From the UHGV virus genome UHGV-0085994: a stretch of 27,750 nt of DNA, one strand, 5' to 3'. Positions 7,493-27,750 of this stretch are shown here, piece after piece. This DNA comes from a virus. Made by a program: the position numbers and the translations under genes. Within the stretch, counting starts at the first letter, position 1. Every line of letters begins with the position of its first letter. The notes under the pieces are model-generated. The model did no database searches. It saw only the letters and a list, made by a program, of their open reading frames with translations, and had not been told where the DNA came from.

Positions 7493-7493
7493 T

Positions 7494-8537: not shown

Positions 8538-8564
8538 ATCACACCTTTCATCACTGATTGGGCT

Positions 8565-9350: not shown

Positions 9351-9355
9351 AAACA

Positions 9356-9385: not shown

Positions 9386-9422
9386 TAAACTTCACAGGCA
9401 TAAAGCACCAGCACTTTGCAGC

Positions 9423-9812: not shown

Positions 9813-9830
9813 AGCGTTTTCACCTCAGAG

Positions 9831-9850
9831 TACTGTTTATCCATACAGTA
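9831..9850. promoter_or_regulatory. LexA box (SOS box) upstream of humD
   Basis: TACTGTTTATCCATACAGTA = CTGT-N8-ACAG, 19 bp upstream of the humD start codon. Confidence 0.65.
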
Positions 9851-9910
9851 TACATTAAAGATGCTTGAAGTGTGCAATAGCGCGATGCTTTGCGCTCGCC
9901 TGGTGGCGCG

Positions 9911-10162
9911 TTATTTTTTGGCTATATCTTCTTTCTGATATACCGGATCGTTTCCTTTTGGCAGCAGGAGGCTTAACTGCCGGTAGTGCCGTAGCCGTTC
10001 CATGAAATAGGTGCGCAGGTTCTCAGGTTGCTCACGGGCTACCTGTTCCGCTATGACGGGTATGTTCAATCGCTCTTTGTAGGCAACCCCCCTGGCAGCC
10101 AGGTCAACGTTAACTTTATTCCTTTCTTCCTGGCTTTTAGCTGCTATGTTCCAGTTGCTCAT
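9911..10162 (-). CDS. hot: Hot, homolog of DNA polymerase III theta subunit (HolE)
   Basis: 83 aa; [35 protein letters not shown] aligns with E. coli theta. Confidence 0.8.
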
Positions 10163-10164
10163 GT

Positions 10165-10380
10165 TTAAGGCTCACATTTCCAGATGGTATTCTGAACACC
10201 CGAACCGGGCGTAAGATGAGGGTTAGCGTTCGCACTATGCTGATATACAGCTTTGGACTTTCCATATTGCTGACAGGCTTTGTCTGCGGTTTTTTGCAGG
10301 CTGTCCAGCCCATACCAGCCATCTGACTGGATGCTAACATTTTCGCCGTCATTGTATTGCACCATCGCACACCCAGACAT
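10165..10380 (-). CDS. small hypothetical protein, possibly a lipoprotein with an unannotated start
   Basis: 71-aa ORF; in-frame upstream codons encode a hydrophobic signal-like stretch ending ILAMSGC but no ATG/GTG/TTG start before the stop. Confidence 0.3.
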
Positions 10381-10513
10381 AGCTAAAATCGCACCGACAA
10401 TACCGCTTTTCCAAAAAGCTCTAATTAGGTCATTCGTTGCCTAATGTCCGAACTGCTAAAGCATCCAAGTTGCTGTAGAATCACCGCCAATTACATAAGC
10501 CTGAAATAAGTGG

Positions 10514-12076
10514 ATGAAAATGACAAGTATTCAACAACGTGCAGAGCTTCATCGTCAAATCTGGCAAATTGCTAACGATGTCAGGGGTTCGGTCGATGGA
10601 TGGGATTTTAAGCAATACGTTCTGGGCGCACTTTTCTACCGTTTTATCAGCGAAAATTTTTCCAGCTATATTGAAGCCGGTGATGACAGTATCTGTTATG
10701 CGAAACTGGATGACAGCGTAATTACTGATGACATTAAAGACGATGCCATCAAAACCAAAGGTTACTTCATCTACCCAAGTCAGCTTTTCTGCAACGTAGC
10801 TGCGAAAGCAAATACCAATGACAGACTGAATGCAGATTTAAACAGTATCTTCGTTGCTATCGAAAGTTCTGCTTACGGTTATCCTTCAGAAGCTGACATC
10901 AAAGGTTTGTTTGCTGATTTCGATACCACCAGTAACCGCCTGGGTAACACCGTTAAAGATAAAAATGCCCGCCTGGCTGCGGTTCTGAAAGGGGTTGAAG
11001 GGTTAAAACTTGGTGACTTCAACGAACATCAGATTGACCTGTTCGGTGATGCCTATGAGTTCCTGATTTCTAACTATGCGGCAAATGCCGGTAAGTCAGG
11101 CGGTGAGTTCTTTACACCGCAGCACGTCTCCAAGCTGATTGCACAACTGGCTATGCACGGGCAGACCAGCGTTAACAAAATCTACGACCCGGCAGCGGGT
11201 TCCGGCTCACTGTTGTTGCAGGCGAAAAAACAGTTTGATAACCACATCATCGAAGAAGGCTTTTTCGGTCAGGAAATCAACCATACGACCTATAACCTGG
11301 CGCGTATGAACATGTTTTTGCACAACATCAACTACGACAAGTTTGATATCAAGCTGGGCAATACGCTGACTGAACCGCACTTCAGAGATGAAAAACCGTT
11401 TGATGCCATCGTTTCTAACCCGCCGTATTCGGTGAAATGGATTGGCAGCGATGACCCGACGCTGATTAACGATGAGCGTTTTGCCCCGGCTGGCGTTCTG
11501 GCCCCCAAATCCAAAGCTGACTTTGCGTTTGTATTACATGCGCTGAACTATCTTTCGGCCAAAGGTCGTGCTGCGATTGTCTGCTTCCCGGGTATTTTTT
11601 ACCGTGGCGGCGCAGAGCAGAAAATCCGTCAGTATCTGGTCGATAATAACTATGTCGAAACCGTAATTTCACTGGCTCCGAACCTGTTCTTTGGCACCAC
11701 CATTGCCGTAAACATTCTGGTTCTGTCCAAACATAAAACGGATACCAACGTTCAGTTTATTGATGCCAGCGAACTGTTCAAAAAAGAGACCAACAACAAT
11801 ATCCTGACCGATGCCCATATCGAACAAATTATGCAGGTATTCACCAGCAAGGAAGATGTTGCTCATCTGGCAAAATCTGTCGCGTTTGAAGCCGTTGTAG
11901 CGAATGACTATAACCTGTCGGTGAGCAGCTATGTAGAATCGAAAGATAACCGCGAAATTATCGATATTGCTGAGCTGAATGCGGAACTGAAAACCACGGT
12001 CAGCAAAATCGACCAGTTGCGCAAAGATATTGATGCGATTGTGGCTGAAATTGAAGGCTGCGAGGTACAGAAATGA
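10514..12076 (+). CDS. hsdM: type I restriction-modification system, DNA methyltransferase subunit HsdM (type IC, EcoR124-like)
   Basis: 520 aa; N6-adenine methyltransferase motif NPPY(SVKW); followed by hsdS with 4-bp overlap. Confidence 0.95.
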
Positions 12077-13221
12077 GCGAGTTGAGTTATCTGGAAAAAT
12101 TGCTGGATGGAGTTAAGGTTGAGTGGAAAACACTAGAGAAAGTGCTTAAACGAACTAAAGGCACAAAAATAACCGCTGGGCAGATGAAAGCTCTTCACAA
12201 AGATAATGCGCCGCTTAAAATTTTTGCAGGGGGAAAAACAGTAGCCTTTGTTGACTTTAAAGATATTCCAGAGAAAGATATTAATAGAGAGCCATCGATC
12301 ATTGTTAAATCCAGAGGTATTATCGAATTCGAGTATTACGATAAACCATTCTCTCACAAAAATGAGATGTGGTCATATCACTCAAATAATGATGCGATAA
12401 GCATAAAGTATATTTATTACTTCCTAAAAATAAATGAAGGATATTTCCAGAAAATTGGGGGTAAAATGCAAATGCCACAAATTGCAACTCCTGATACAGA
12501 TAAGTTTGAAGTTCCAATCCCTTGCCCGGATAATCCGGAAAAATCCCTTGCCATCCAGTCTGAAATCGTTCGGATTCTGGATAAATTTACTGCAGTTACC
12601 GCTGAGCTTACCGCTGAGCTTAACATGCGTAAAAAACAGTACAACTACTATCGCGACCAGTTACTGAATCTTGAGGGCAGGGAAAATACTCGAGAAATGA
12701 GGATAGGTGATATTTATGATTTTCAGTATGGAACAGGCAATACAATTCCTAAATCTGGAGGGCAATATCCTGTTTATGGTAGCAACGGGATTGTAGGCTC
12801 CCATGACAAATATAACAGCGAAGACTCGCCTGTTATTGGTCATATAGGTGCTTACGCAGGAATCGTTAACTGGGGCCAAGGTAAGCATTTTGTTACATAC
12901 AACGGAGTTATTTGTAGGCACAAATCGAAGGAAGTTCTTCAAAAATACGCCTACTATTTATTACTTTTACAAGATTTCGGTTCAAAATCTAATAGTGCAT
13001 CACAGCCTTTTGTTTCATATAACATATTAAATGCTCCTATTGTTTTGGTTCCCCCTTTACAAGAGCAAGCTCGTATCGTCGCAATACTCGATAAATTCGA
13101 CACACTGACCAACTCCATCACCGAAGGTCTCCCGCGTGAAATCGAGTTGCGCCAGAAACAATACGAGTACTATCGTGATTTACTGTTCAGTTTCCCAAAA
13201 CCTGAAACAGCCAGTAATTAA
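12073..13221 (+). CDS. hsdS: type I R-M specificity subunit HsdS (two target-recognition domains; central TAELTAEL repeat)
   Basis: 382 aa; conserved repeats LDKF..(Q/K)QYxYYRD after each TRD; central TAEL x2 as in EcoR124I-type subunits. Confidence 0.95.
12598..12621 (+). repeat. 12-bp tandem direct repeat ACCGCTGAGCTT x2 encoding TAEL-TAEL in hsdS
   Basis: Directly visible; in the EcoR124 family the copy number of this repeat sets the spacer length of the recognition sequence. Confidence 0.75.
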
Positions 13222-13342
13222 TTGAGCATTTTTACAGACCGGACCACCTTAACATCCGGTCAGTATATAGACTATTTTCTACACGACGGAAGTCGCCCTT
13301 AACTCCCTTCCGGCCCTTGCCAGACGGCACAAAGGATGCGCT

Positions 13343-16300
13343 ATGACTCATCAAACACACACCATTGCTGAATCCAATAACTTTATCGTCCTTGATAAGT
13401 ACATCAAAGCTGAGCAAACAAGCGACAGCTACCAGAGCGAATCGGACCTGGAACGTGAACTGATTCAGGACCTGCGGAATCAGGGCTATGAATTTATATC
13501 CGTAAAATCACAGTCGGCGATGCTAGCCAATGTTCGGGAACAGCTTCAGAACCTCAATGGTGTGGTGTTTAATGACAGCGAGTGGCGGCGTTTCACGGAG
13601 CAGTATCTGGATAACCCGAGCGATGGCATTCTGGATAAGACCCGTAAAATCCATATCGACTATATTTGCGACTTTATTTTTGATGACGAGCGTCTTGAGA
13701 ACATCTATTTGATAGATAAAAAGAATCTCATGCGCAATAAGGTGCAGATTATCCAGCAGTTTGAACAGACGGGTTCTCATGCTAACCGTTATGACGTCAC
13801 GATCCTGGTTAATGGTTTACCGCTGGTGCAAATCGAACTAAAAAAACGCGGGGTGGCGATTCGTGAGGCTTTCAACCAGATACATCGTTACAGTAAAGAG
13901 AGTTTTAACAGCGAAAATTCCCTGTTTAAGTATCTGCAGCTGTTCGTCATTTCCAACGGCACTGATACCCGTTATTTTGCCAACACCACAAAGCGCGATA
14001 AAAACAGTTTTGACTTCACCATGAACTGGGCTAAATCAGACAATACACTGATTAAAGACCTCAAAGACTTTACCGCTACCTTTTTCCAGAAACATACTCT
14101 GCTTAATGTTCTGGTGAACTACAGCGTTTTTGACAGCAGTCAGACACTACTGGTAATGCGACCGTACCAGATTGCCGCCACCGAGCGCATTCTGTGGAAA
14201 ATTAAGAGTTCCTTTACAGCGAAGAACTGGTCAAAACCGGAAAGCGGTGGGTATATCTGGCACACTACCGGTTCTGGTAAAACCCTCACCAGCTTTAAAG
14301 CCGCGCGTCTGGCAACAGAGCTGGACTTTATTGATAAAGTCTTCTTTGTGGTCGACAGGAAAGACCTCGATTACCAGACCATGAAGGAATATCAGCGTTT
14401 TTCGCCAGACAGCGTCAACGGCTCGGAAAATACCGCAGGTCTTAAACGAAATCTGGATAAGGACGATAACAAAATTATCGTCACTACTATTCAGAAACTC
14501 AATAACCTGATGAAAGCAGAAAGCGATCTGCCTGTATATAATCAGCAAGTGGTGTTTATATTTGATGAATGCCACCGCAGCCAGTTTGGAGAAGCGCAGA
14601 AAAACCTGAAGAAGAAATTCAAACGCTATTATCAGTTTGGTTTTACCGGCACCCCTATTTTCCCGGAAAACGCCTTAGGCTCAGAAACAACCGCCAGCGT
14701 ATTTGGTCGTGAATTGCATTCGTATGTAATTACCGATGCGATTCGTGACGAAAAAGTGCTCAAATTCAAGGTGGACTACAACGATGTGCGGCCACAGTTT
14801 AAGTCTTTAGAGACAGAAACTGACGAGAAAAAACTGAGTGCGGCTGAAAATCAGCAGGCGTTTCTTCATCCCATGCGTATTCAGGAAATCACGCAATATA
14901 TTCTGAATAATTTCCGCCAGAAAACCCACCGTACCTTCCCTGGCTCAAAAGGTTTTAATGCTATGTTGGCAGTGAGCAGCGTGGATGCCGCGAAAGCCTA
15001 TTATGCGACGTTTAAACGGTTACAAGAAGAAGCCGCTAATAAATCGGCTACCTATAAACCGCTGCGTATTGCGACAATCTTCTCCTTTGCCGCCAATGAA
15101 GAACAAAATGCCATTGGTGAAATTTCCGATGAAACTTTTGATACCAGCGCAATGGACAGCAGTGCTAAAGAGTTTCTGGACGCTGCAATTCGTGAATATA
15201 ACAGCCATTTTAAAACTAACTTTAGCACCGACAGTAACGGTTTTCAGAACTACTATCGTGATTTAGCCCAGCGGGTTAAAAATCAGGATATCGATCTGCT
15301 AATTGTCGTGGGGATGTTTTTAACCGGCTTCGATGCTCCAACATTAAACACGCTATTCGTCGATAAAAACTTGCGTTTTCACGGCCTGATGCAGGCATTC
15401 TCCCGCACCAACCGCATTTATGACGCGACTAAAACCTTCGGTAATATTGTCACGTTCCGGGATCTGGAACGCTCAACCATTGATGCCATAACGCTGTTTG
15501 GTGACAAAAATACCAAAAATGTGGTTTTAGAAAAGAGTTATGCAGAGTATATGGAAGGCTTTACTGATGCTGCCACTGGTGAAGCTAAACGCGGCTTCAT
15601 GACAGTAGTTTCAGAACTGGAACAACGGTTCCCTGACCCTACCAGTATTGAAAGTGAAAAAGAGAAGAAAGACTTCGTTAAACTGTTTGGCGAATACCTG
15701 CGTGCCGAGAACATCCTGCAAAACTATGATGAATTTGCCACGCTAAAAGCCCTGCAACAAATCGATCTTAGCGATCCTGTTGCGGTAGAAAAATTCAAAG
15801 CAGAACATTATGTGGATAATGAAAAGTTCGCTGAATTGCAAACAATTCGTCTCCCTGCTGATCGCAAGATTCAGGATTATCGTTCTGCCTATAACGATAT
15901 TCGCGACTGGCAGCGCCGTGAGAAAGAAGCTGAGAAAAAAGAGAAATCAACCACTGACTGGGATGACGTAGTTTTTGAGGTCGATTTGCTGAAGTCTCAG
16001 GAAATAAACCTGGATTATATCCTTGGACTGATTTTCGAACACAATAGACAAAATAAAGGCAAGGGCGAAATGATCGAAGAGGTCAAACGCTTAATTCGTT
16101 CAAGCCTGGGGAACCGGGCGAAAGAGGGCCTGGTGGTCGATTTTATTCAGCAAACGAACCTGGATGATTTACCAGACAAAGCCAGTATCATTGAGGCATT
16201 CTTTACGTTTGCTCAACGCGAACAGCAACGTGAAGCAGAAGCATTGATAAAAGAAGAAAATCTCAATGAAGATGCAGCAAAACGCTATATTCGCACGTCT

Positions 16301-16459
16301 TTAAAACGCGAATACGCCACCGAAAATGGCACAGAATTAAACGAAACATTACCAAAACTTAGTCCGTTGAATCCGCAATATAAAACGAAAAAACAGGCAG
16401 TTTTCCAGAAAATCGTCTCGTTTATTGAGAAGTTTAAAGGCGTAGGCGGAAAAATATAG
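13343..16459 (+). CDS. hsdR: type I R-M restriction endonuclease/translocase subunit HsdR
   Basis: 1038 aa; helicase motif I TGSGKT and DECH box; gene order M-S-R typical of type IC. Confidence 0.95.
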
Positions 16460-16538
16460 CCCAATTCGTATTTTTCTTGCGGGTTCTTAATTAAACCCGC
16501 AAGAGACCGTGGGGTTCCAAATGGCTAATATACTCCCC

Positions 16539-16625
16539 TTACCCATGCGCGACAATGCTGCCAAAAGTGATAGAGAACAGCCAGAAATAGATCGCGGCCA
16601 TAATGATTTTGAATGCCGTGTTCAT
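16539..16625 (-). CDS. 28-aa hydrophobic peptide (MNTAFKIIMAAIYFWLFSITFGSIVAHG), candidate small membrane protein or type I toxin-like peptide
   Basis: ATG with AGGAG Shine-Dalgarno at 7-nt spacing; single predicted transmembrane helix; C1 operator about 85 bp upstream; below the ORF-track length cutoff. Confidence 0.4.
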   Translation of the reverse strand: MNTAFKIIMAAIYFWLFSITFGSIVAHG

Positions 16626-16653
16626 ATTTTCAGCTCCTGTGATTGATTGGATA

Positions 16654-16684
16654 CATGCCGCGCCTTGCGGCATGTTTTTATTTT
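16654..16684 (+). terminator. rho-independent terminator (plus strand), likely end of the hsdR transcript
   Basis: CATGCCGC-loop-GCGGCATG hairpin followed by TTTTTATTTT. Confidence 0.5.
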
Positions 16685-16707
16685 CACTTTCTCTGTTTTA
16701 AAAATCA

Positions 16708-16724
16708 AGATTTATTAGAGCAAT
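16708..16724 (-). promoter_or_regulatory. C1 operator, 16/17 match
   Basis: Plus strand AGATTTATTAGAGCAAT; lies between the HAD-like gene stop and the small peptide gene. Confidence 0.65.
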
Positions 16725-17230
16725 TATTGTTGATGGAGAAGCGCGTTTTCATACTCCCTGACCATTAACGTAAGTACGCCGTGACTCCTGAAAACACGCG
16801 CCACTTCAATCTTATCTTCCAGCGCGAACGCAATTTTACTTAGACCAATTTTCTTCAGGAGATCAATCTTTGCTGGACCGTCATTTCTGTCATCGGTGGC
16901 AGGACGCATAGATAGCAAAGGCTCAGCCCCATTTGTTACGTGCTTACGCAACCAGGCTCGTGTTTTATCCCTGGCTATCTCACAGCGCCCGGTTACAAAC
17001 CAGAGGGTGTAAATGCCGGACAACTGGCGCACCATATCAATAACTGGAGTGATGGGAGCATCAGTGTCACAGGCAAGGTTAAACTCGTTCCAGTGCTCTG
17101 TTAATGCACCTTTGCCAGGTGGTGGAAGTAAATGCAGCCTGTCTTCCGTTGCCTCTGATATCGTCCCATCAATATCTACTATGACGATGTACGGACGTTC
17201 CTGGTGTGCGTGTTTATTGAAAATACTCAA
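16724..17230 (-). CDS. HAD-superfamily phosphatase-like protein (DxDGT motif; 5'(3')-deoxyribonucleotidase or polynucleotide 3'-phosphatase-like)
   Basis: 168 aa; N-terminal VIVDIDGTIS matches HAD motif I; TTG start with GAGGAGG Shine-Dalgarno. Confidence 0.6.
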   Translation of the reverse strand: MSIFNKHAHQERPYIVIVDIDGTISEATEDRLHLLPPPGKGALTEHWNEFNLACDTDAPITPVIDMVRQLSGIYTLWFVTGRCEIARDKTRAWLRKHVTNGAEPLLSMRPATDDRNDGPAKIDLLKKIGLSKIAFALEDKIEVARVFRSHGVLTLMVREYENALLHQQ

Positions 17231-17302
17231 ATGCCCTCCTCATTGGACGAAAAAAATGCTGGTGGGAGCACTCCACCAGCATTAAAAGTGACACTGTAAC
17301 TA

Positions 17303-18565
17303 TCAGCGAACGTAAATAGTGCCGCCGTTCTCTTTTTCCCATGCATCGCTACGTGCATAGCAAACATCGAGAAGTCTTCTTGCCGCAGTTTCCTCTAAAC
17401 CCAATTCGACAACCAACTGCTCATGACGGCGGGTAACCACATCAAACAGGGTATGCAGCCCTTTAGTTGCCAGATCATCAATGAATTCCGGTTCGAACGG
17501 CAGCTCTGCATCTGCCAACATAACCTCTTGCGCCCACTCAACTCGACGGACCAGTTCCGGGCGGCGGCTTTCCATCTCTTTACAGATCAATTCATGGAAG
17601 AACTCTACCCAACCTTCCGGCTGAAACTCGCGGAAAATTGCCAACGGCTGGAAGTTTGGCATCAACCATTCGTTGATTCGGATATCAATGGCATAGCCCA
17701 TGTCGCAGCAGAACTGATAAGCAAAGTCCAGCTTAGAAACGATATAAGGACGCTCGTTATTGAACTCTTTAGGCGATGAGATCCCATAAGCCAGGAGGCG
17801 CGGGAAGAAGGAGATTTGCCCTAACGTCGGATGAAGTTTGCTTGCAGGGAAACGGCGCTCAGTAATGCCATACATTTCCTTCTTGAGCGTCGCAAATTTG
17901 GCATTCTCATTAACCAGCGCGGTAACCTCTGCTTTTTTATTAGCAAATGCCACGCGCGCTTCGCTTGCATCTTTAATAGTTTTTTTGAGCTGTTGGTTAA
18001 GGTCGGCGACCTGCTTACGCAGTTCCTGTCGCTCGCTTTTAGCTTTGTTATAGCGTTTCTCAAGGTTAAAAGGATCAAGTTTCATGATCTCTTTATATTG
18101 AGATTTTAGCGTTGAAATCTGTGAGTTCCGCAGTTCAACCATCGCGGTCATTTCATTGAGTTTTGTTTCCAGCTCAATGCTTATACGTTCGGCATTATCA
18201 GCACGCTGGTTGGCGTCATGCGTCGCATCGTCGATCGCGTCCTGTTGCTGGCGTTTCAAATGTTCAATTTGCAGCTGAAGCTCTTCAATTTCTTTACCCT
18301 TCAGACCGAGATCCAACTGCATATTTTCAGCTGCATCTACCAGGGAGTTATGGCTATCAGCTTCTGCGTTATAAACATCAATAAGCTGTGCGTGAAGCAT
18401 CTCCGCTGACTGAACCGCATTATCAAAAAAACGTGCTGTGAGGTCATCACAACTAACGCGGCGTTGCGCAGCCCGGATGTTCTGGATAATGGCCGGGATA
18501 CCGGCATTCAGGACATCAGGGATAGATACATTTTCGATTGATTGGTTTTGTGCTGAAGTGCTCAT
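17303..18565 (-). CDS. hypothetical protein: N-terminal coiled coil (about 230 aa) plus uncharacterised C-terminal globular domain
   Basis: 420 aa; heptad-like Q/E/K/L-rich N-terminal half; no recognisable catalytic motif in the C-terminal half. Confidence 0.65.
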   Translation of the reverse strand: MSTSAQNQSIENVSIPDVLNAGIPAIIQNIRAAQRRVSCDDLTARFFDNAVQSAEMLHAQLIDVYNAEADSHNSLVDAAENMQLDLGLKGKEIEELQLQIEHLKRQQQDAIDDATHDANQRADNAERISIELETKLNEMTAMVELRNSQISTLKSQYKEIMKLDPFNLEKRYNKAKSERQELRKQVADLNQQLKKTIKDASEARVAFANKKAEVTALVNENAKFATLKKEMYGITERRFPASKLHPTLGQISFFPRLLAYGISSPKEFNNERPYIVSKLDFAYQFCCDMGYAIDIRINEWLMPNFQPLAIFREFQPEGWVEFFHELICKEMESRRPELVRRVEWAQEVMLADAELPFEPEFIDDLATKGLHTLFDVVTRRHEQLVVELGLEETAARRLLDVCYARSDAWEKENGGTIYVR

Positions 18566-18566
18566 T

Positions 18567-18785
18567 TCAAAGTTCCGTATTAGCTTGTGCTTCGGTCATT
18601 TTTCCTAAGTATGAAGGTGGAAGGACTACGCAATTTGTATCCAGTCCCTCACCTATGGCAGCCTGTAAAATTCTGGCTAAGGTGAGTCTCTTGTTGCGAT
18701 ACCTGGTGATGACATGCCTGATACCGCCGGTCGGCGTAACAAAGGCGATCAGCCAGTAGTGATATTTCCGTCGGAATGGCCACAT
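18567..18785 (-). CDS. small hypothetical protein (72 aa) translationally coupled to the 420-aa ORF
   Basis: ORF ends at the 420-aa start; begins 15 bp from a C1 operator. Confidence 0.3.
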   Translation of the reverse strand: MWPFRRKYHYWLIAFVTPTGGIRHVITRYRNKRLTLARILQAAIGEGLDTNCVVLPPSYLGKMTEAQANTEL

Positions 18786-18799
18786 AGTGCACCTTATAG

Positions 18800-18816
18800 A
18801 TTGCTCTAATAAAAAA
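18800..18816 (+). promoter_or_regulatory. C1 operator-like site (14/17)
   Basis: ATTGCTCTAATAAAAAA. Confidence 0.5.
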
Positions 18817-18836
18817 CGTGATGAGTGTACATCACG
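18817..18836. terminator. bidirectional hairpin terminator between two minus-strand operons
   Basis: CGTGATG-AGTGTA-CATCACG flanked by an A-run upstream and a T-run downstream. Confidence 0.45.
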
Positions 18837-18848
18837 TTTTAAAAATAT

Positions 18849-18865
18849 GGAACTATTAGAGCAAT
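18849..18865 (-). promoter_or_regulatory. C1 operator-like site (13/17), inverted relative to 18800-18816
   Basis: Plus strand GGAACTATTAGAGCAAT. Confidence 0.4.
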
Positions 18866-18866
18866 A

Positions 18867-19568
18867 TTATTCTGATTCTCGCTCAAAAAATGAGCTGATA
18901 AGGGGAAGCCAATCCTCTGACACTTCGCGAGGTCGCGGTTTGCCGTGGAAAAAGATTATTCGGCAGTCTTTTGGTAATGCCCCATTCCCCCTGGAGTAAC
19001 GCGCGCTCGCATATTTCGAACCAGGTTCCACAACATCGGCCTTGTAACTTACAAACCATCCCGGATACAGATCCTGAAATGCTGGTGTATCATCACCCAT
19101 AACCTTCCGCAAAAACCCCTGCTCACCCCAGCATTCAGTAGTAACACAACGAGCAATCCAACCTTCCGGATCTTGCCAGAATGCACTCCAGATATGCGCT
19201 TTTACACTATTTGGTATCCACAGGGCACCGCTGCCACGATATTGTGGATGGTAAAAATCCCTAAGCATGGTGAAGCTGGTTGGTGGATTCTCTAGGATTG
19301 GGCGTATATCACCGGCAATAACCGTGTCCAAATCCAGATAGAACAGATCATCGGTTATATCCGGTCGGAACAACTCGATTTTCGCCCACCAGCCACGGCA
19401 CTTTTGCCACTGGTTGATCAATGGGACAACTTTGACGCCAGGTACATGTAAACGCTTCAGGTCTGTCAGGCAAATAATTTCATAGCCTTTTGGCAGTTGA
19501 TTAACCAGCCACTGCACATCGGAAGCGTTATAGTCACCACCAGAGCGAAGAACTAAAGCAATCTTCAT
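18867..19568 (-). CDS. hypothetical protein with DxD-like motif (possible nucleotide-sugar transferase fold), coupled to the phosphatase gene
   Basis: 233 aa; YLDLDTV motif; start overlaps the ppp stop. Confidence 0.6.
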
Positions 19569-20257
19569 GCTGCACCATCACCTTTCACTTTCATCAATGT
19601 CAGGTTTCCGCAAAATACGGCACCTGTGTCGATATAATGCTGATTCCAGAATGTCTTCGGGCTTTTCACCGGAGTGTGACCAAAGATAAAACGATCTGCG
19701 CCCGAAATTTCGCCACCAATATCATCCATCGAATCACTGATACGCTCGCGCGCCCAGACAACGTTGAAAAGCGGCACCTCCTTACCGAATTGGTATTCAT
19801 TATCCGGATAGTCGGCATGGGCTATAACGATAGTTTCTTGCCCGGTGTTCAACTCAATGATATAGGGCAGACGCTTTACCAGCTCCACCAGCGCCCAGGC
19901 TAATATTTCCTGATCAGTGTCCAGCATGAAGAACCATTGTCCGCCATTCATTAGCCAGTTATTCACGTTGCCATCTGGACTTAACGCATCAATCATCAGC
20001 CGCTCATGGTTCCCCATCACTGCCCTGAACCAGGGCATCTGCAATAGTTCCAGACATTCGACATTTTCAGTACCGCGATCGATAAGGTCTCCGAACGATA
20101 TCAGTAAATCCTGCGCCGGGTCAAAATCCACACGATGGAGTTCGGACATCAGTCTGGTGTAGCAACCATGCAGATCACCAACAACCCAGACATTCCTGTA
20201 TTTGGTACCGTCGATACGGTGATAAATTGTGGGTGCCATCATGTATTCTTCAGCCAT
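19565..20257 (-). CDS. ppp: serine/threonine protein phosphatase, lambda-PP/PrpA family metallophosphatase
   Basis: 230 aa; motifs GDLHGC, GDLIDRG, GNHE; symbol by analogy with what I recall as P1 ppp. Confidence 0.85.
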
Positions 20258-20391
20258 TCTTTAAGAGTCATCTGCGGAATACCTCCCATTTTCCCGCATG
20301 AAACAACGTCAATCTGTTCACGCGCAGACTGGAATAACAAAGGCAGGTGACTTAGATTTTTTGGCGTGCCGCCGGAGTGAACGCGTGGTTC

Positions 20392-21211
20392 GGCACTGTT
20401 GCAAAGTTAGCGATGAGGCAGCCTTTTGTCTTATTCAAAGGCCTTACATTTCAAAAACTCTGCTTACCAGGCGCATTTCGCCCAGGGGATCACCATAATA
20501 AAATGCTGAGGCCTGGCCTTTGCGTAGTGCTCGCATCACCTCAATACCTTTGATGGTGGCGTAAGCCGTCTTCATGGATTTAAATCCCAGCGTGGCGCCG
20601 ATTATCCGTTTCAGTTTGCCATGATCGCATTCAATCACGTTGTTCCGGTACTTAATCTGTCGGTGTTCAACGTCAGACGGGCACCGGCCTTCGCGTTTGA
20701 GCAGAGCAAGCGCGCGACCATAGGCGGGCGCTTTATCCGTGTTGATGAATCGCGGGATCTGCCACTTCTTCACGTTGTTGAGGATTTTACCCAGAAACCG
20801 GTATGCAGCTTTGCTGTTACGACGGGAGGAGAGATAAAAATCGACAGTGCGGCCCCGGCTGTCGACGGCCCGGTACAGATACGCCCAGCGGCCATTGACC
20901 TTCACGTAGGTTTCATCCATGTGCCACGGGCAAAGATCGGAAGGGTTACGCCAGTACCAGCGCAGCCGTTTTTCCATTTCAGGCGCATAACGCTGAACCC
21001 AGCGGTAAATCGTGGAGTGATCGACATTCACTCCGCGTTCAGCCAGCATCTCCTGCAGCTCACGGTAACTGATGCCGTATTTGCAGTACCAGCGTACGGC
21101 CCACAGAATGATGTCACGCTGAAAATGCCGGCCTTTGAATGGGTTCATGTGCAGCTCCATCAGCAAAAGGGGATGATAAGTTTATCACCACCGACTATTT
21201 GCAACAGTGCC
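20392..21211 (-). mobile_element. IS26 (IS6 family), complete 820-bp element
   Basis: 14-bp terminal inverted repeats GGCACTGTTGCAAA at 20392-20405 and 21198-21211; encodes Tnp26; no 8-bp target-site duplication in the flanks. Confidence 0.95.
20444..21148 (-). CDS. tnpA: IS26 transposase Tnp26
   Basis: 234 aa from MNPFKGRHFQRDIILWAVRWY...; matches IS26 transposase as recalled. Confidence 0.95.
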   Translation of the reverse strand: MNPFKGRHFQRDIILWAVRWYCKYGISYRELQEMLAERGVNVDHSTIYRWVQRYAPEMEKRLRWYWRNPSDLCPWHMDETYVKVNGRWAYLYRAVDSRGRTVDFYLSSRRNSKAAYRFLGKILNNVKKWQIPRFINTDKAPAYGRALALLKREGRCPSDVEHRQIKYRNNVIECDHGKLKRIIGATLGFKSMKTAYATIKGIEVMRALRKGQASAFYYGDPLGEMRLVSRVFEM

Positions 21212-24200
21212 AATAACCTGTCCGTCTATCTGCATACGACCGGTTGGTTGCTGCAAATCGTTGGCGGCAGTCGTCACCTGGGACGTGGAGGCTGGTTCAG
21301 GCGCATTATTTTTCCGCATCCCCGGCGAGTTGCGGAGTTTATCAAATAGCCCATCAATCCCCATTTGTGCGCCGAGTTGGTCAAAGTAACTTGAGTTGCT
21401 GGCCACCGGACGCGCCTCTTCAACTGGCATCGGAGTATCAACATACACATTGCCAGCTGCTGTTGCGGTCCCCTTCCCTCGTGCACGTTCTTCGAGCGTT
21501 CCCTGAACGACTTCCCGACGCATACCCCGGCCATTCATGAATTTGTTGACCAGATCGTTAACGCCAACAGCATTGCCAATTTTGTCTACCAGACCGCCTT
21601 TCTCAAACGGGCTATCACCAGGGGTAAACGCCAGGCCAGTAGACTGATCGATAACAGCGTTATCAGGCAGTGGTCCCCTCACTCCATATTGCGCCCCACC
21701 CTGTGCTCCTGCTCCAGGTGTATAGATTTCACCACCTAAATAGCGAGCACGATGAGTATTGACCTTGATCGCGTACTCACGGTTTTCTTTCGATAAGTCA
21801 CCTGTGCCTTTTTTCCACTTATTGATAGTGCCAAACCCAGCATTATATGCAGTGATGGCCTCGTTTAAGTCTCCATTGGCTTGCTTCAGATATTTGCTCA
21901 TGAGAAGAGCCGCAGCTTCTGCCGATTTCACAGGATCAAACGATTCACCTTCAGCTAAGCCAGTCTCTTCACGAGCAATCCCCGTGAACTGAAACATCCC
22001 CAGAGCACCGGTTTGGGATTTTGCATACGGATTACCACCAGATTCAGTTGCAGCAATCGCGTAAAGAGTGCCTTCTGGAAGACCGTATTTATTCTCTAGT
22101 TCGGCAAAATACGGAGCCAACTTATCGAGATTTGCCTTACCTTCAGCGCCAAGACTTCCGACTTTTACATCCAAGTTGCCATTGTTGTAGGTATCCGCAG
22201 CTTTCTGAATGTCATTCCTGGTGCCAGTGGTATTAAGCGACGATGATGACGAGCTATTTTGACCAATAGCTTTATCAATTTTCTGCAACGCGCTATTGCC
22301 CGTTTCTACGGCATTTGCATTGATAATCTGATTAGCAGTTTCTTTAACTGTTTTATTGCTATCTTTCGCCGTGTCCAGTGCCGCATTTATCACGCGGGTA
22401 ACAATATTAGTCTGTTTGGCATCGGATTCAGTTTTAGAATCAGATGTCTCCTGGTGGCTATTAACCGGAGCTTTTAACTCTGGAGTGATTTCTTTCGCAT
22501 TAGCCTCGCCGATCGGATTGGGTATTTTTGATACAATCATTGCCGCAGGGGTATTTTTAACGGCATCAACCGCTGCATCTAATGCTTTACCTGGTAAATT
22601 TTTAACCCCATCCCAAATATTACCAGCCGCCTCTTTAATGTGTTTCCCTGGGTTCTTAATGAAATCAATTGCACTATCAATTGCATCACTGAAAACCTGT
22701 TTCAGGTTATCGACAGTAAAGAAGTCTTTGATGGCATCCAGCTTTTCAAGCAGCTTATTAGATGTATCGCTAAACCATGCTGAAACAGCATCACCAATCT
22801 TTGCTGTGTAATCATCGAACTTGGTAGAAATGGTGTCGCCAAGGTTAGAAATATATGTTTCTAAGTTGGTAATCCCACTATCAATGGCATGGGCAATACT
22901 TTCCGTCGAAAATGATTGCAACATATTGCCGATATCCTCAAATCCAAGTGATTTGAGAACCTCACCAATGGCGCTGCTAATACCAGATACCAGTCCCCCC
23001 ATATCAAGAATATTAGCTAACGTATAAGCGGCTTTTTGCTGGAATGATGGATCTTGTCCTGATTTAAGCCCAAACGCTCGACGTTGCGCTTCTGTATCAT
23101 TCCAACCGGTTACCGCATCATAAATACCTCCAACCACTGTGCCGACTAGGGGAATTGCGCGTAACGCCCCTTTACCAACTGCCTTTAATCCAAGTTTACC
23201 TGCTGCCCGGGCAGCCAAATCTCCGCCTTCATGGGCGAGAGTCTTCTTACCACCACCGCGTAGCATTCCTACAAGTTTCTTTGCCCCCAGAGCGCCAAAA
23301 GCGAGTGCTCCAGCTTTTTTCAGCATGCCACGCCCCATTAACAACGACGCGATGCCACCGGCCCCCTTCCCTAACAGGCTAAATAGTTTGGACAGCAAGC
23401 CGCCCTTCTTTTTCCCGGTGTTTTTGGCTATCTGATCAAGGGCGCTGAGAATCTTGTCATTGCCCTCTTTAATTTCGCTGGTCTGCTCCTGAAGTTCCTG
23501 AACCGTCCGTTTTTGGGTGTTAACCTGAACGACATCGGCACTATTTTGCGATTTACGCCTAAAAAAACCTTTTCTACGGCTGTTATCGTCATTGCCACGA
23601 ATCACATCGGCAATAGACTTTCTGGCACCATTAAGCGATCCGCCAACTTCTTTTGATATCCCGCCAAGCTCCTTCCCTGCTGCCCACAATGGACCTGCAA
23701 CGGCATAACCTAACGCATCGACAGCACGAGTCTCTGAAGGGTTACCTATGCCTTCAGCTACTTTTGACAGTTTTTTTAATAAACCTGATTCAGCATTTAG
23801 ACGCTCATCATCCTCTTTTCGCCTGGCCTTTTCTGCTCGTTCAGCACGGGCATCTTCCGCTGCGGCCTTACTCCCTGACTTTCCAATAAAACGACCACGC
23901 GCATCGCGTTGGTTTTGGCTTTTTTGCGCACCGCCTTTTTGACCGAACATTTCGCGAGCGTGTTCGGCTGCTTCGGTCCGTTGTGCCTTTACATCCTCTG
24001 GTATAGCCTTCCTGCGTCGTTTTTTACCCTTTGGTGTGGTTGATTTGGCCCGCTGTTCCTGTTGAGCAACATCTTCCTGAACTACACGAGAAACGTCCCC
24101 TAAATTAAGCCGTTTCATTGCCTCAACAATAGGGTCCACTGATGGCGCATTGGCCACAAAGTCTGGCCGGGAATTTTCGATTGTGCGATTTAATGCCGAC

Positions 24201-24352
24201 ACACTGCGAGAGACAGGATCAACAGTTGCAACGCGTCCCCCTTTCAAATCTTCAACAGCTTCCCGGATACCTGCAAGCTCTTCCAGCTCTTTTGCACTGG
24301 CGGTTTCAACTGTCCTTATAACATCGTCAATGTTGGCGTTTTTTCTTTCCAT
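21185..24352 (-). CDS. sit: Sit-like structural injection transglycosylase (tape-measure-like), 3'-truncated by IS26
   Basis: 1055-aa ORF; lytic transglycosylase motif AIAATESGG..GALGMFQF; the last codons of the ORF read into IS26 (element ends at 21211), and P1 Sit is longer as I recall it. Confidence 0.8.
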   Translation of the reverse strand: MERKNANIDDVIRTVETASAKELEELAGIREAVEDLKGGRVATVDPVSRSVSALNRTIENSRPDFVANAPSVDPIVEAMKRLNLGDVSRVVQEDVAQQEQRAKSTTPKGKKRRRKAIPEDVKAQRTEAAEHAREMFGQKGGAQKSQNQRDARGRFIGKSGSKAAAEDARAERAEKARRKEDDERLNAESGLLKKLSKVAEGIGNPSETRAVDALGYAVAGPLWAAGKELGGISKEVGGSLNGARKSIADVIRGNDDNSRRKGFFRRKSQNSADVVQVNTQKRTVQELQEQTSEIKEGNDKILSALDQIAKNTGKKKGGLLSKLFSLLGKGAGGIASLLMGRGMLKKAGALAFGALGAKKLVGMLRGGGKKTLAHEGGDLAARAAGKLGLKAVGKGALRAIPLVGTVVGGIYDAVTGWNDTEAQRRAFGLKSGQDPSFQQKAAYTLANILDMGGLVSGISSAIGEVLKSLGFEDIGNMLQSFSTESIAHAIDSGITNLETYISNLGDTISTKFDDYTAKIGDAVSAWFSDTSNKLLEKLDAIKDFFTVDNLKQVFSDAIDSAIDFIKNPGKHIKEAAGNIWDGVKNLPGKALDAAVDAVKNTPAAMIVSKIPNPIGEANAKEITPELKAPVNSHQETSDSKTESDAKQTNIVTRVINAALDTAKDSNKTVKETANQIINANAVETGNSALQKIDKAIGQNSSSSSSLNTTGTRNDIQKAADTYNNGNLDVKVGSLGAEGKANLDKLAPYFAELENKYGLPEGTLYAIAATESGGNPYAKSQTGALGMFQFTGIAREETGLAEGESFDPVKSAEAAALLMSKYLKQANGDLNEAITAYNAGFGTINKWKKGTGDLSKENREYAIKVNTHRARYLGGEIYTPGAGAQGGAQYGVRGPLPDNAVIDQSTGLAFTPGDSPFEKGGLVDKIGNAVGVNDLVNKFMNGRGMRREVVQGTLEERARGKGTATAAGNVYVDTPMPVEEARPVASNSSYFDQLGAQMGIDGLFDKLRNSPGMRKNNAPEPASTSQVTTAANDLQQPTGRMQIDGQVIGTVANSRW

Positions 24353-24433
24353 GATCTTATCGCCTACCGTTTCGGTTTAAGTTTTTCTTCCAGTTTCTCC
24401 AACAGGAAAAACGCATAGGATTCAGTAAGCCTT

Positions 24434-25315
24434 TCAGCGTCCTGAATCGGTATACCCCCATACAAAACCAGGTTGGACACTAAGGTCTGATAGCTTTTCA
24501 ATCCCCACCTGTGGAATGAAGTCGGTAGCCCGAAAGGGCACCCACAGACGGGTATACGCACCCTCTGTGGACTCCTTTTTATCCTGATTTGGGCATTTAT
24601 GCGGCGGGAGACGAAGACGCATTTCACCTTTATCGATGTAGCACGGTAAACCATGTTCGAGCTTTTCATGAGCCAGTCGGATGTGTGCCGCCAGCTTCAT
24701 AAATTCAGTATCAATGGCCATCCGTTTAATCGTTTCATAACGACGCTCAGCCTGATCTTCACGAGTACCGCTAACATCGTTATAAAGCTCACACTGATAA
24801 GCGAATTCCCAAAAACGCAAATCAACGATCGCTTCTTTGAATTCCGCGTCGTCTTCAGGTGGCAATGCTGCACGGCGCATCTCCAGCATTTCCATTGCCC
24901 AACCATCAAGCGGCACGATACGCCATTGATAAGGTACTCCCTCTACAGACACCTCAATATCGTCAATGAAAGGTTCCACTTCCAGGACCTGGATATCTTC
25001 AGCCAGAGCATTCATATCGCAATCGTAATAATGCTCTTTACCGCAATGTTTACAGGTGTAAGTGAATGTCTCGACCGGTGTTTCACGGGAGCCGGTAAAT
25101 ATCCACCATAACGCGGTAATCCGGTCCTGCGCCGTCCATGTCAGGGGATCATGTTTCGCGGGTTCAGCCAGCAAGGCTTTTAAATACGCCGTTGTCTGTT
25201 GTTCTTGTTCCTCCGGTGTTATCGAGTTGAAACGCATCGCATCAGCAATATTTGGCTGACGGAACTGGATCAATTCAGTTGGCCGCGATGGTAGCGGGAA
25301 AAGGGGTAAAAGCAT
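24434..25315 (-). CDS. hypothetical tail-module protein upstream of sit (possible tail assembly protein)
   Basis: 293 aa; position between putative tube gene and sit; no domain recognised. Confidence 0.55.
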   Translation of the reverse strand: MLLPLFPLPSRPTELIQFRQPNIADAMRFNSITPEEQEQQTTAYLKALLAEPAKHDPLTWTAQDRITALWWIFTGSRETPVETFTYTCKHCGKEHYYDCDMNALAEDIQVLEVEPFIDDIEVSVEGVPYQWRIVPLDGWAMEMLEMRRAALPPEDDAEFKEAIVDLRFWEFAYQCELYNDVSGTREDQAERRYETIKRMAIDTEFMKLAAHIRLAHEKLEHGLPCYIDKGEMRLRLPPHKCPNQDKKESTEGAYTRLWVPFRATDFIPQVGIEKLSDLSVQPGFVWGYTDSGR

Positions 25316-25329
25316 CCTTGCTCCTTAAT

Positions 25330-25941
25330 TCAAAGAGAAAAACTAAAGCCCAGAAGGGAAGCCAAAGAACTTGAGGATTGGTTAAACGTGCTGTGCAATG
25401 CGAAGGTCATTGGGAATGACTTAAATTCCGTAACCTGATCCCGCGCATAGGTGACATCGCCGGTAGTGACCGGGAATACAGTCATCTCATTTTCCAGTTT
25501 GGTTAAGCCGGAAGACAGCAACCGATAAATACGCACATTGAGCAAATATTTAGACGGTATATTCCCGGTACCGTCTGGATTAATCACCCGACTTTTTGCC
25601 GTCTTAAACCAGTCCAAAACGAGGCCATCAACGGTATCCCTGACCATCATTGTTATCTGCCCTGGCGAACGCTCCGTTGGTTGAAGGATATTCCCTCCGC
25701 CGATTTTAATCGTTTCATATTCGATGCTGTAATCGTGGTAGGTAATATCTTTGGCAAAGAAGTCTGCTCCCTCCAGTCCATCAACTTCGACAGAGAACTG
25801 CCATCCTTGCGCGAACAGCATTTTGTTCATGATGATTGACGTCAGCTTACCAACTTCCCGCTCACCAACGCCGGAGCCAAATAATGTCGTCGTTAATGCC
25901 GAAGATACATAAGACTTTACTGAAGCAACATTAAGCCCCAT
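25330..25941 (-). CDS. putative tail tube protein
   Basis: 203 aa; size and position (upstream of chaperone-like gene and tape-measure-like sit) typical of myovirus tube proteins. Confidence 0.45.
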   Translation of the reverse strand: MGLNVASVKSYVSSALTTTLFGSGVGEREVGKLTSIIMNKMLFAQGWQFSVEVDGLEGADFFAKDITYHDYSIEYETIKIGGGNILQPTERSPGQITMMVRDTVDGLVLDWFKTAKSRVINPDGTGNIPSKYLLNVRIYRLLSSGLTKLENEMTVFPVTTGDVTYARDQVTEFKSFPMTFALHSTFNQSSSSLASLLGFSFSL

Positions 25942-25951
25942 ATCAGCCCCC

Positions 25952-26559
<608 letters not shown>

Positions 26560-26671
26560 TAGTCATTTGTTCATTGAGTAGGAATATTGTTGTCTGGGGG
26601 GTAATCAGTGTAGGTGGAATGAGGGATATGATATGGTTATCACATAATCAGGTTGTTTTGAGTAAAACAAT

Positions 26672-26698
26672 AAAACGCCCTTTAATGGGCGTTTTTTT
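26672..26698. terminator. rho-independent terminator (hairpin AACGCCC-TTTAAT-GGGCGTT plus T7), bidirectional context
   Basis: Directly downstream of the 270-aa minus-strand ORF. Confidence 0.6.
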
Positions 26699-26727
26699 AA
26701 AACTTAAATTGACTATCCTTTCAAATA

Positions 26728-27540
26728 CTATTTTAATTCTATGTAATTTTTAAATTCTCCCTCATATTTATACATGATGCTATCAAATCCTTCCATTACA
26801 TCAACGAATTGTTGTGAACATTCCGGCTTCCAAGGCGTACACTTACGAACCATATCCATTTTTTTCTTATCCTTCGTTGTATCGACTAAGGATAGGTACC
26901 CTATAAAATTCATCATCTGAACAGGATCTTGATTTGTGAATATATATTTGACGTTTTGCTTAGTAGGCGAAAAAGAATCAAAAGCAGGGAACATATATTC
27001 ACCAGAAAAAGAGAGTGCAGCATCAATGACGTCTGTTGCAGGAGTGCAGTTGCTCAGAATTGGCACTAAGCTAAAATTAGCACCTGAGCACACTGCATAT
27101 ATATCATCCCCTTTTTTTAGTTTTAACAGAGAGTCTTGCTTTGAATCCAATATTTTCAATTTGATATAATTTAGTGGCGTTGCATTTTCCCCTGGAGTAA
27201 ATAACTCTACAATTGGTTTATTATTCACCATTCTTATGGATTTTATTTCACCATACACAATTGGAATTGTGTTCCATTTTTCCTGAGCAGCAAATTCATT
27301 ATCTTTAAAATCATTAACCAACTCAGATGGCAAATGATAACCAAATTGATTGTTCATTGCTTTCGAAGCAAATCCAGACAAATAGAATGCCCTTACTAAA
27401 TCATAATCTTTCTTTGAGGTAGAAAGCCAATCTGGCAATTTATTATCAGCTATCGCGCTTCCAGCAAAAATAGCACAACAAAATGTTATTACATTAAATA
27501 ATTTCATTTTCCATTCACTCATTAATCGGTTTAAACTCAC
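26728..27540 (-). CDS. hypothetical secreted/periplasmic protein (N-terminal signal peptide), AT-rich cargo gene
   Basis: 270 aa; hydrophobic signal MKLFNVITFCCAIFAGSAIA; region strongly AT-rich compared with the phage backbone. Confidence 0.55.
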   Translation of the reverse strand: MSLNRLMSEWKMKLFNVITFCCAIFAGSAIADNKLPDWLSTSKKDYDLVRAFYLSGFASKAMNNQFGYHLPSELVNDFKDNEFAAQEKWNTIPIVYGEIKSIRMVNNKPIVELFTPGENATPLNYIKLKILDSKQDSLLKLKKGDDIYAVCSGANFSLVPILSNCTPATDVIDAALSFSGEYMFPAFDSFSPTKQNVKYIFTNQDPVQMMNFIGYLSLVDTTKDKKKMDMVRKCTPWKPECSQQFVDVMEGFDSIMYKYEGEFKNYIELK

Positions 27541-27709
27541 TAATTAATTCACCAAGACTATTTGGGTATGCTTTATAAATAACATACTCCGAAGAGCCAT
27601 CTGAATATTGGTAAGCCCCATAACAGATCAGTTTATTTATTCCTTTCTGAATAGTTTTTTGATTATAAGAATCAACCACTGTTATTCCATATGACGGTAA
27701 TGACTCCAA
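27515..27709 (-). CDS. hypothetical ORF fragment, 5' end disrupted by IS1 (only in-frame start is a TTG inside the IS1 terminus)
   Basis: 64-aa ORF with no internal Met; its 3' end overlaps the start of the 270-aa gene. Confidence 0.3.
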   Translation of the reverse strand: MESLPSYGITVVDSYNQKTIQKGINKLICYGAYQYSDGSSEYVIYKAYPNSLGELISEFKPINE

Positions 27710-27750
27710 CTTATTGATAGTGTTTTATGTTCAGATAATGCCCGATGACT
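27696..27750 (-). mobile_element. IS1 right-terminal fragment (55 bp), inverted relative to the copy at 1-53
   Basis: GGTAATGACTCCAACTTATTGATAGTGTTTTATGTTCAGATAATGCCCGATGACT, recognised as the IS1 terminus. Confidence 0.8.

Follow-up and report, generated by a model that had tools for sequence, protein, structure and literature searches.

How did a complete IS26 come to lie between the remnants of pmgP and sit in a P1-like sequence, and what has become of the element that carries it? The window, that is, the whole 27.75-kb stretch of human gut metagenome DNA that we analyzed, holds one copy of IS26 (Table 1). As the preliminary description stated, this copy is complete, with intact inverted repeats and transposase. 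The repeats are 14 bp long and perfect, GGCACTGTTGCAAA; the 14-mer has two occurrences in the window, one at each IS26 terminus and on opposite strands, compared to a chance expectation of 0.01. The element is 99.9% identical to IS26 in public records and carries one private synonymous base, at nucleotide 681, relative to the other copies compared. Its Tnp26 is the same protein as that of a copy in the plasmid pLAO48, barring a G184N substitution in that pLAO48 copy (copy 1). The 8-bp sequences on either side, CGTGGTTC and AATAACCT, are neither direct nor reverse-complement repeats of each other, and shifts of 1-2 bp did not uncover a duplication concealed by miscounting, which bears out the earlier claim that none is present. 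Simple insertion or resolution of a cointegrate would be expected to leave an 8-bp direct duplication of the target. A missing 8-bp duplication is usual for IS26 and marks the event rather than the element (PMC4471558).

Table 1. Features of the window, with positions counted from its first nucleotide.
Feature	Position	Strand	Description
IS1 right end (IRR)	1-53	-	reverse complement GGTAATGACTCCAACTTATTGATAG...; IS1 continues leftwards beyond window
ORF at cra / "lysogeny establishment" position	49-324	-	91-aa fusion ORF; 3' end cut by IS1
cre recombinase	375-1406	-	343 aa; relatives annotated Cre / site-specific integrase
c1 repressor	2549-3400	+	283 aa; PF27008
pacA 3' remnant	6610-7233	-	N-terminal ~185 aa gone; PHROG terminase profile matched from position 186 only
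Truncated lpa	7184-7405	-	73-aa ORF; ~57 native codons + out-of-frame pacA sequence; PF25716 BPP1_LPA
Deletion junction	7233-7234		934 bp of P1 removed (P1 90164-91097 absent)
hsdM, hsdS, hsdR	10514-16459	+	type I restriction-modification
pmgS, pmgR, pmgQ	17303-19568	-	
ppp	19565-20257	-	NinI-like Ser/Thr phosphatase, Metallophos domain
pmgP 3' remnant	20239-20391	-	153 bp, 50 codons + stop; collinear with intact pmgP up to base abutting IS26
Left 8-bp flank	20384-20391	+	CGTGGTTC
IS26	20392-21211	-	complete, 820 bp
IS26 IRR	20392-20405	+	14 bp
tnp26	20444-21148	-	intact 234-aa Tnp26; DDE_Tnp_IS240 domain, PF13610 E=2.4e-48
IS26 IRL	21198-21211	-	14 bp
Right 8-bp flank	21212-21219	+	AATAACCT
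sit'::IS26 fusion ORF	24352->21185	-	1055 aa; 1047 native Sit codons, then 8 from IS26 IRL + stop
pmgB, tub, pmgC, rest of late sit operon	24434-26518	-	upstream of sit
Gene at simC position	26728-27540	-	function-unknown phrog_14355
Second IS1 IRR end	27697-27750	+	inverted relative to first; IS1 continues rightwards beyond window

On one side, IS26 severs the end of sit, the tail tape-measure gene of the phage. The frame was said to read into IS26 with loss of the C-terminus, and it does: the native codons are followed by an IS26-encoded tail, GTVANSRW, and a stop. Measured against P1 and intact relatives, sit is cut 252 bp short of its stop codon, a loss of 83 codons plus the stop, with the SLT domain (748-857) still present. 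Full-length Sit has 1130 aa in pPC6-mcr1 and 1140 aa in P1, and P1 and all intact P1-like plasmids compared carry the complete gene, which argues against a natural end at this point. Other assemblies, of which the functionality is not known, carry a nonsense allele at sit codon 1045 or an ISEcp1-blaCTX-M unit inserted 2 bp away from where IS26 cuts the gene. JL22 and P1-CTX, P1-like phages that carry blaCTX-M and have been reported to pass it on to new hosts, were considered for insertions at the same sit position, which would have marked the Sit C-terminus as dispensable; this was rejected, as their insertions are located elsewhere.

On the other side, the 134 bp between ppp and IS26, previously described as the upstream region of ppp, are not merely upstream sequence: they belong to the 153-bp 3' end of pmgP, and this gene runs into the start of ppp here just as in P1. 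Intact pmgP in LT883139.1 reads ...CTACACAA/GAACCACG... across the breakpoint (slash). The genes expected upstream of ppp are indeed absent; pmgN, pmgO and most of pmgP are missing, and so is the operator (Oppp) and promoter region under C1 control. We also considered an outward hybrid promoter for ppp made by the IS26 IRR, an idea that was abandoned because a consensus scan gave no sigma-70-like site at the junction.

Both flanks were aligned with P1 and its relatives. Positions 21212-25000 of the window match P1 41240-45058 on the plus strand, while positions 1842-20391 match P1 80626-94800 on the minus strand. The same opposite-strand arrangement was seen relative to the phages that match both flanks (JL22, P7, RCS47, SJ46, 673R5 and 813R1) and to the complete plasmids NZ_CP075461, NZ_CP059290, NZ_CP035313 and CP047090. 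On each side, collinearity with intact relatives extends to the very base touching IS26, with nothing gained or lost. Within each arm, cre-c1-pacB...ppp to one side of IS26 and sit-pmgB-tub-pmgC to the other, the window shares ~95-100% nucleotide identity and gene order with P1 and P1-like phage-plasmids (Punavirus; NC_005856). IS26 deletion in cis keeps the backbone in its ancestral orientation, which the flanks here do not; a trans product has flanks that are oppositely oriented relative to the ancestral backbone and collinear with it to the IS end, as was found here. The preliminary reading was right that this is not a simple insertion, but its attribution to an adjacent deletion is not supported, given flanks on opposite strands relative to P1 and intact relatives. 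Judged from the alignments, the geometry is that of either a trans (inversion) event of IS26 or a cointegrate formed in inverted orientation.

The junction is probably the footprint of a replicative, inversion-type IS26 event, in which the IRL end of an IS26 resident in pmgP attacked sit on the opposite strand. IS26 would already have been present in pmgP of a P1-like phage-plasmid, with IRR-pmgP3' as its old flank. Attack on sit may then have followed by intramolecular transposition in trans, or by cointegration in inverted orientation with another P1-like molecule, which is topologically equivalent. Either route would have joined P1 80626 (minus), via IS26, to P1 41240 (plus), removing the end of sit and parting ppp-pmgQRS from its C1-controlled promoter region. 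He et al. 2015 described IS26 copies in their plasmids without matching duplications, and intramolecular trans events giving inversions bracketed by inverted IS26 copies and inverted 8-bp repeats (PMC4471558). Their trans cases pKPN-068, pKPC-727 and pKpQIL-234 likewise show no flanking duplication and have gene or operon halves inverted beside IS26, although they were diagnosed by matched inverted 8-bp repeats with two IS26 copies per replicon, whereas a second copy was not found here.

A direct precedent for IS26 inversion in sit of a P1-like plasmid is pLAO48 (NZ_OP242270.1, E. coli LA086), in which IS26 is joined to a 3'-truncated sit on a P1-like IncY backbone that is oppositely oriented on either side of IS26. 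As a complete plasmid, pLAO48 displays two inverted IS26 copies, with the intervening backbone inverted and the target 8-mer CGCCAGGC at both junctions in inverted orientation, while the window shows one junction only. The sit breakpoint of pLAO48 is also 417 bp deeper, and its partner site is close to ref/cra, next to a mer-transposon fragment.

The two junctions differ in their spread among public assemblies. The junction of IRR with GAACCACG-pmgP'-ppp is base-identical in the NCBI drafts GCA_050033045.1, GCA_902846605.1 and GCA_006237845.1 and in Logan SRR28598113 and ERR10124371. The exact Sit::IS26 fusion protein was found only in ENA and Logan assemblies, namely the Feng-2015 gut sample and Logan SRR28206348. 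Since the pmgP junction occurs in several independent assemblies and the sit junction in two sample sets only, the IS26 in pmgP is probably the older. The joined structure and either IS26 junction were absent from INPHARED phages, PLSDB, RefSeq complete E. coli and IMG/VR.

The junction could also have arisen from two independent simple insertions, in pmgP and sit, in inverted orientation and each with its own 8-bp duplication, followed by RecA-dependent recombination that inverted the segment and swapped the flanks. Such a route would match a one-step event in both geometry and 8-bp pattern, and the widespread pmgP junction makes a pre-existing IS26 in pmgP clear. It nevertheless takes one event more than one-step trans transposition, no assembly has IS26 at this sit position flanked on both sides by AATAACCT, and He et al. 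hold one-step events to be likelier for such patterns (PMC4471558), so we consider it improbable.

An inversion event must leave another IS26 copy, in inverted orientation, at the reciprocal junction, pmgP5'...GAACCACG/IS26/AGGTTATT...sit3', with ...GGTCACTAATAACCT/GGCACTGTTGCAAAG... and ...CTACACAAGAACCACG/GGCACTGTTGCAAATAG... as the predicted junction sequences. This junction is absent from the contig and would have been lost later; the inversion reading has to assume that loss, which is an undocumented second step. No PmgP-N::IS26 fusion was found among 231 PmgP homologue clusters with a designed fusion query, and four predicted exact fusion sequences and a 90-aa IRR-to-sit3' ORF were absent from a collection of 15 billion proteins. 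Exact look-ups of six predicted reciprocal-junction ORFs were negative, as were exact DNA scans for the junction in JGI metagenomes, IMG/VR and GTDB genomes, and contigs bearing a 72-aa Sit C-terminal ORF had it in other contexts. A second IS26 copy between different flanks, at comparable depth, would keep a de Bruijn assembler from crossing the element. Because the MEGAHIT contig k127_395 and the independent scaffold FENG15-1 scaffold_673 both pass uninterrupted through IS26, these data suggest that a single copy is now present, as judged from the 27.75-kb window of the replicon.

A single copy is also what an adjacent deletion in cis would leave, had IS26 at one site removed the DNA between pmgP and sit without creating a duplication. 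The lone IS26 of the window, the read-through assemblies and the unmatched flanks are all consistent with this, and IS26 adjacent deletions are known at the locus, with a junction 12 bp deeper, IS26/CACTCCGG, in ERZ21847175 and ERZ24911428. Cis deletions and translocatable units also share with the window a single IS26, unrelated flanks and lost neighbor genes, but orientation is kept there, whereas the flanks here are mutually inverted (Harmer & Hall PMC4894685; PMC7986276). With the two flanks matching opposite strands of P1 and of all ten intact relatives named above, a plain adjacent deletion cannot join these ends in the canonical P1 backbone, and it becomes workable only if something else had already inverted the backbone between the two sites. 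Tracing the IS1 ends yielded no consistent precursor: both window ends are IRR, and IS1 cannot invert the segment because the two IS1 copies would be direct repeats in canonical P1 coordinates, so an IS1-based route to a single-IS26 cis deletion fails. We therefore regard a cis deletion as unlikely.

Beyond the IS26 junction, the window carries other inactivating lesions. Most of lpa (its 3' part) and the 5' part of pacA are lost to the 934-bp deletion, along with the LPpac promoter and the pac cleavage sites; the deletion junction is in no PLSDB plasmid and is present in Logan SRR31599358. Both ends are truncated by IS1. The ENA contig has 72 nt more of IS1 past the left end of the window, where the IS1 junction is identical in NCBI CP055919.1, JABXQJ010000004.1 and CP056412.1; plasmid NZ_CP034659.1 of E. 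coli ATCC 98082 has the right IS1 junction at 100% identity. Positions 9427-10414, extra relative to p1506-2, were considered as an insertion, which was rejected, as they are native P1 humD, hot and a third small ORF with no Pfam match. The block also encodes Phd/Doc. Inside the window, which ends in IS1 on both sides, there is no repA/parAB or repL, and we found no replication, lysis, head or baseplate genes in the 27.6 kb and no resistance genes in the window.

Essential functions of P1 include lpa, pacA/pac and sit (PMC10695390). A functional P1-like phage-plasmid has intact lpa, a pac site with pacA/pacB, and sit, whereas in the window lpa, pacA/pac and sit are all disrupted. On these sequence features, the element is a predicted defective, decayed remnant of a P1-like phage-plasmid from a human gut metagenome, and the end state of the inversion-type event would be a 27.6-kb, IS1-bracketed P1 remnant, predicted to be non-inducible.

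The IS1-bracketed 27.6-kb block could instead be a retained, selected module that a gut E. coli lineage keeps on its chromosome or a large plasmid, a reading that we consider quite unlikely. Its cargo would be C1 immunity, the gene at the sim position, type I restriction-modification, Phd/Doc and HumD/Hot, with the late sit operon fused by IS26 head-to-tail with ppp-pmgQRS. The region of sit codon ~1047 would then be a recurrent landing site, hit by IS26, by ISEcp1-blaCTX-M 2 bp off and by the codon-1045 nonsense allele. An assembly chimera, with two IS26 copies of the metagenome collapsed and pmgP' and sit' falsely joined, is extremely unlikely. In its favor, the contig comes from short-read metagenome assembly, IS26 is notorious as a repeat, and assemblies other than those of the Feng-2015 sample confirm the junctions only one at a time. 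Against it, MEGAHIT unitigs halt at branching repeats and do not cross them, two different assemblies of the sample gave the same ~27.8 kb contig, with further "similar places" reported, and the contig ends exactly k=127 nt into IS1 on both sides, which shows that assembly did stop where a repeat was truly multi-copy.

Mechanism and element are both already known, the damage is of an ordinary IS26 kind rather than a new biological system, and the practical value of the finding is modest. It provides a worked example in which the orientation of IS26 flanks, beyond an absent duplication, separates inversion-type events from adjacent deletions. P1-like elements have been reported as resistance-gene carriers. 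A contig that resembles a P1-type phage-plasmid is here a predicted non-inducible remnant, which metagenome callers of prophages and phage-plasmids should not count as a phage, and it adds a further case in which P1-like elements are eroded by IS26 together with IS1.

The window is P1-like phage-plasmid sequence, and we compared it with bacteriophage P1 (NC_005856). Its IS26 is canonical; the terminal 14-mer GGCACTGTTGCAAA occurs in the window only at 20392-20405 (+) and 21198-21211 (-), with 0.01 chance matches expected. The preliminary description of a complete element with intact inverted repeats and transposase but no 8-bp target duplication was borne out, as the adjoining 8-mers, CGTGGTTC and AATAACCT, share no direct or inverted repeat, even with shifts of 1-2 bp to allow for a miscount. 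Nucleotide 681 of IS26 is a private synonymous base, A in place of the T of the other copies compared; even the IS26 copies of other assemblies that share the pmgP junction exactly do not have it.

Features of the window, with positions in nucleotides
Feature	Position	Strand	Description
IS1 IRR ends	1-53 and 27697-27750		right inverted-repeat ends of IS1, mutually inverted, at both window ends
hsdM, hsdS, hsdR	10514-16459		complete type I restriction-modification system
pmgP 3' remnant	20239-20391		last 50 codons of pmgP; overlaps the ppp start, as in P1
IS26	20392-21211		exactly 820 bp
tnp26	20444-21148	minus	intact ORF, 234-aa DDE transposase

On either side, collinearity with intact relatives extends to the base touching IS26. 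To the right, window 21212 corresponds to P1 41240, within sit (P1 40988-44410, minus strand), which encodes the tape-measure protein (PMC9024508). Among intact relatives, pPC6-mcr1 comes closest on this side (99.95% identical); compared with it, sit lacks 252 bp at its 3' end, or 83 codons plus the stop. The frame does run into IS26 with loss of the C-terminus, as first described: the Sit::IS26 ORF has 1047 native codons followed by GTVANSRW and a stop supplied by the left inverted repeat (IRL), and keeps the SLT domain (residues 748-857). To the left, window 20391 corresponds to P1 80626, within pmgP (P1 80152-80778). What had been called the ppp upstream region does adjoin ppp, but it is a remnant of pmgP rather than mere upstream DNA.

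The two flanks differ in orientation. Window 1842-20391 aligns to the P1 minus strand (94800 to 80626) and 21212-25000 to the plus strand (41240 to 45058), giving the junction P1 80626(-)-IS26-41240(+). Opposite strands were also found in the other phage genomes matching both flanks (JL22, P7, RCS47, SJ46, 673R5, and 813R1) and in the complete plasmids NZ_CP075461, NZ_CP059290, NZ_CP035313, and CP047090. Adjacent deletion, the cis type of IS26 event, leaves backbone orientation unchanged; since the flanks lie on opposite strands, the adjacent deletion initially proposed is excluded in a canonical P1 backbone. Three kinds of event have this geometry: trans intramolecular transposition, recombination of one IS26 copy with another in inverted orientation, and formation of an inverted-orientation cointegrate. 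He et al. 2015 described this class of inversion-type event for IS26, and the copies analysed there had no matching flanking duplications (PMC4471558).

The right inverted repeat (IRR) joined to GAACCACG-pmgP'-ppp recurs without a base change in three NCBI drafts (GCA_050033045.1, GCA_902846605.1, and GCA_006237845.1) and two Logan assemblies (SRR28598113 and ERR10124371). The Sit::IS26 fusion was found only in ENA and Logan assemblies, namely those of the Feng-2015 gut sample (ERZ909642 / ERR688562, PRJEB7774; exact protein on contig k127_395) and Logan SRR28206348, whose contig equals window 21185-27725 with zero mismatches. Because the pmgP junction recurs in several assemblies and the sit junction in two sample sets only, we infer that IS26 first resided in pmgP, its IRL end being joined to sit later. 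In ENA ERZ21847175 and ERZ24911428, the first ~45 nt join IRR to pmgP' 12 bp deeper (...CAGTGCC joined to CACTCCGG), and the downstream context differs, pmgS being followed by a DegP-like gene; a sister lineage seems to have undergone one more IS26 adjacent deletion.

A precedent comes from pLAO48 (NZ_OP242270.1), a complete P1-like plasmid with two inverted IS26 copies, both adjoined by the target 8-mer CGCCAGGC in inverted orientation. The inverted segment spans ref to the sit 3' end, and sit is split 417 bp deeper than in the window. pLAO48 thus shows that IS26 trans inversion into sit occurs in the P1-like plasmid family. The second copy has an aberrant end: at pLAO48 56418-56428, ATGATCAT stands where its inverted repeat should have the terminal GGC, and misassembly or damage to the IS end may account for this.

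A one-step inversion would also yield a reciprocal junction, pmgP5'...GAACCACG-IRL...IRR-AGGTTATT...sit3'. JGI metagenomes, IMG/VR, and GTDB genomes were scanned for this DNA with negative results, and no PmgP-N::IS26 fusion was present in 231 PmgP homologue clusters. Of six predicted reciprocal-junction ORFs looked up exactly, the one match was a generic 72-aa Sit C-terminal ORF, whose contigs have other contexts. One is a nonsense allele (Logan ERR1995424_43, 4892-8284): sit is full-length (3393 nt, no indels) with a premature stop after codon 1044, 3 codons ahead of the IS26 cut, and the separately called 72-aa ORF follows. Another is an ISEcp1-blaCTX-M-IS903 transposition unit in sit (Logan ERR3549687_26, ~5988-9966), with the duplication TATTA(G) at sit nt 3137-3143, <=2 bp from the IS26 breakpoint (sit nt 3141). 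Six independent contigs (1 NCBI, 5 Logan) share a boundary: they start on the ATG of this ORF or 1-2 nt ahead of it (sit nt ~3173-3175, ~31 nt beyond the breakpoint region), and their ends carry no IS sequence. De Bruijn contigs cross IS26 yet end at IS1, which argues that IS26 has one context in the Feng-2015 sample. Either the reciprocal copy was lost later or events took a more complex course than a single step.

We consider it probable that an inversion-type event from the IS26 copy resident in pmgP joined its IRL end to sit, with a presumed later loss of the reciprocal copy. Two independent insertions of IS26 in inverted orientation, followed by recombination between them, would match the geometry but seem unlikely. 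A cis deletion would require a backbone rearranged beforehand by something else, and we regard this as improbable. An assembly chimera is very unlikely; the Sit'-Tnp26-ppp order recurs when the Feng-2015 data are assembled independently (FENG15-1_SAMEA3136633 scaffold_673, 27,749 bp).

The window is the 27,894-bp MEGAHIT contig k127_395, from a human gut metagenome, less 72 nt per end, and that contig extends into IS1 by exactly 127 nt (= k) at either side before it ends. As both window ends are IS1 IRR ends, the P1-like 27.6 kb lies between two copies of IS1. The left junction (cra::IS1) is present base for base in NCBI CP055919.1, JABXQJ010000004.1, and the 5.1-Mb chromosome CP056412.1, where lacA'YZI comes after IS1. 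E. coli ATCC 98082 has the right junction on its 454-kb cointegrate plasmid, in which sit is intact.

A second lesion, at 7233/7234, removes 934 bp (P1 90164-91097). lpa thereby loses its last ~93 codons, most of the gene, and pacA its first 569 nt, and the LPpac promoter and pac cleavage sites are gone. No PLSDB plasmid has this deletion; Logan SRR31599358 carries the same deletion ORF on a different backbone. In P1, lpa, pacA, and sit are essential, while pmgP and ppp are not (PMC10695390). Because these three essential genes are damaged and the 27.6 kb holds no replication, partition, lysis, head, or baseplate genes, its gene content indicates that the element cannot be an inducible phage. 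The hsdMSR genes lie between hot/humD-phd/doc and a PNK-phosphatase gene at the pmgT position, as in many P1-like plasmids, and HsdS length varies among relatives (382 aa in the window, 418-422 aa in 673R5 and pLAO48).

The IS26 junction was not found in curated complete records. It represents nothing new in kind. The class of mechanism is well described (PMC4471558, PMC4894685, PMC7986276), and the P1-like phage-plasmids are a well-known family in which IS26 and resistance cargo are already reported (PMC9600943). Collectively, these findings refine the initial account in three ways: the event was probably of the inversion type rather than a deletion, what was taken for an upstream region is left over from pmgP, and the whole contig is a decayed P1 remnant bracketed by IS1.
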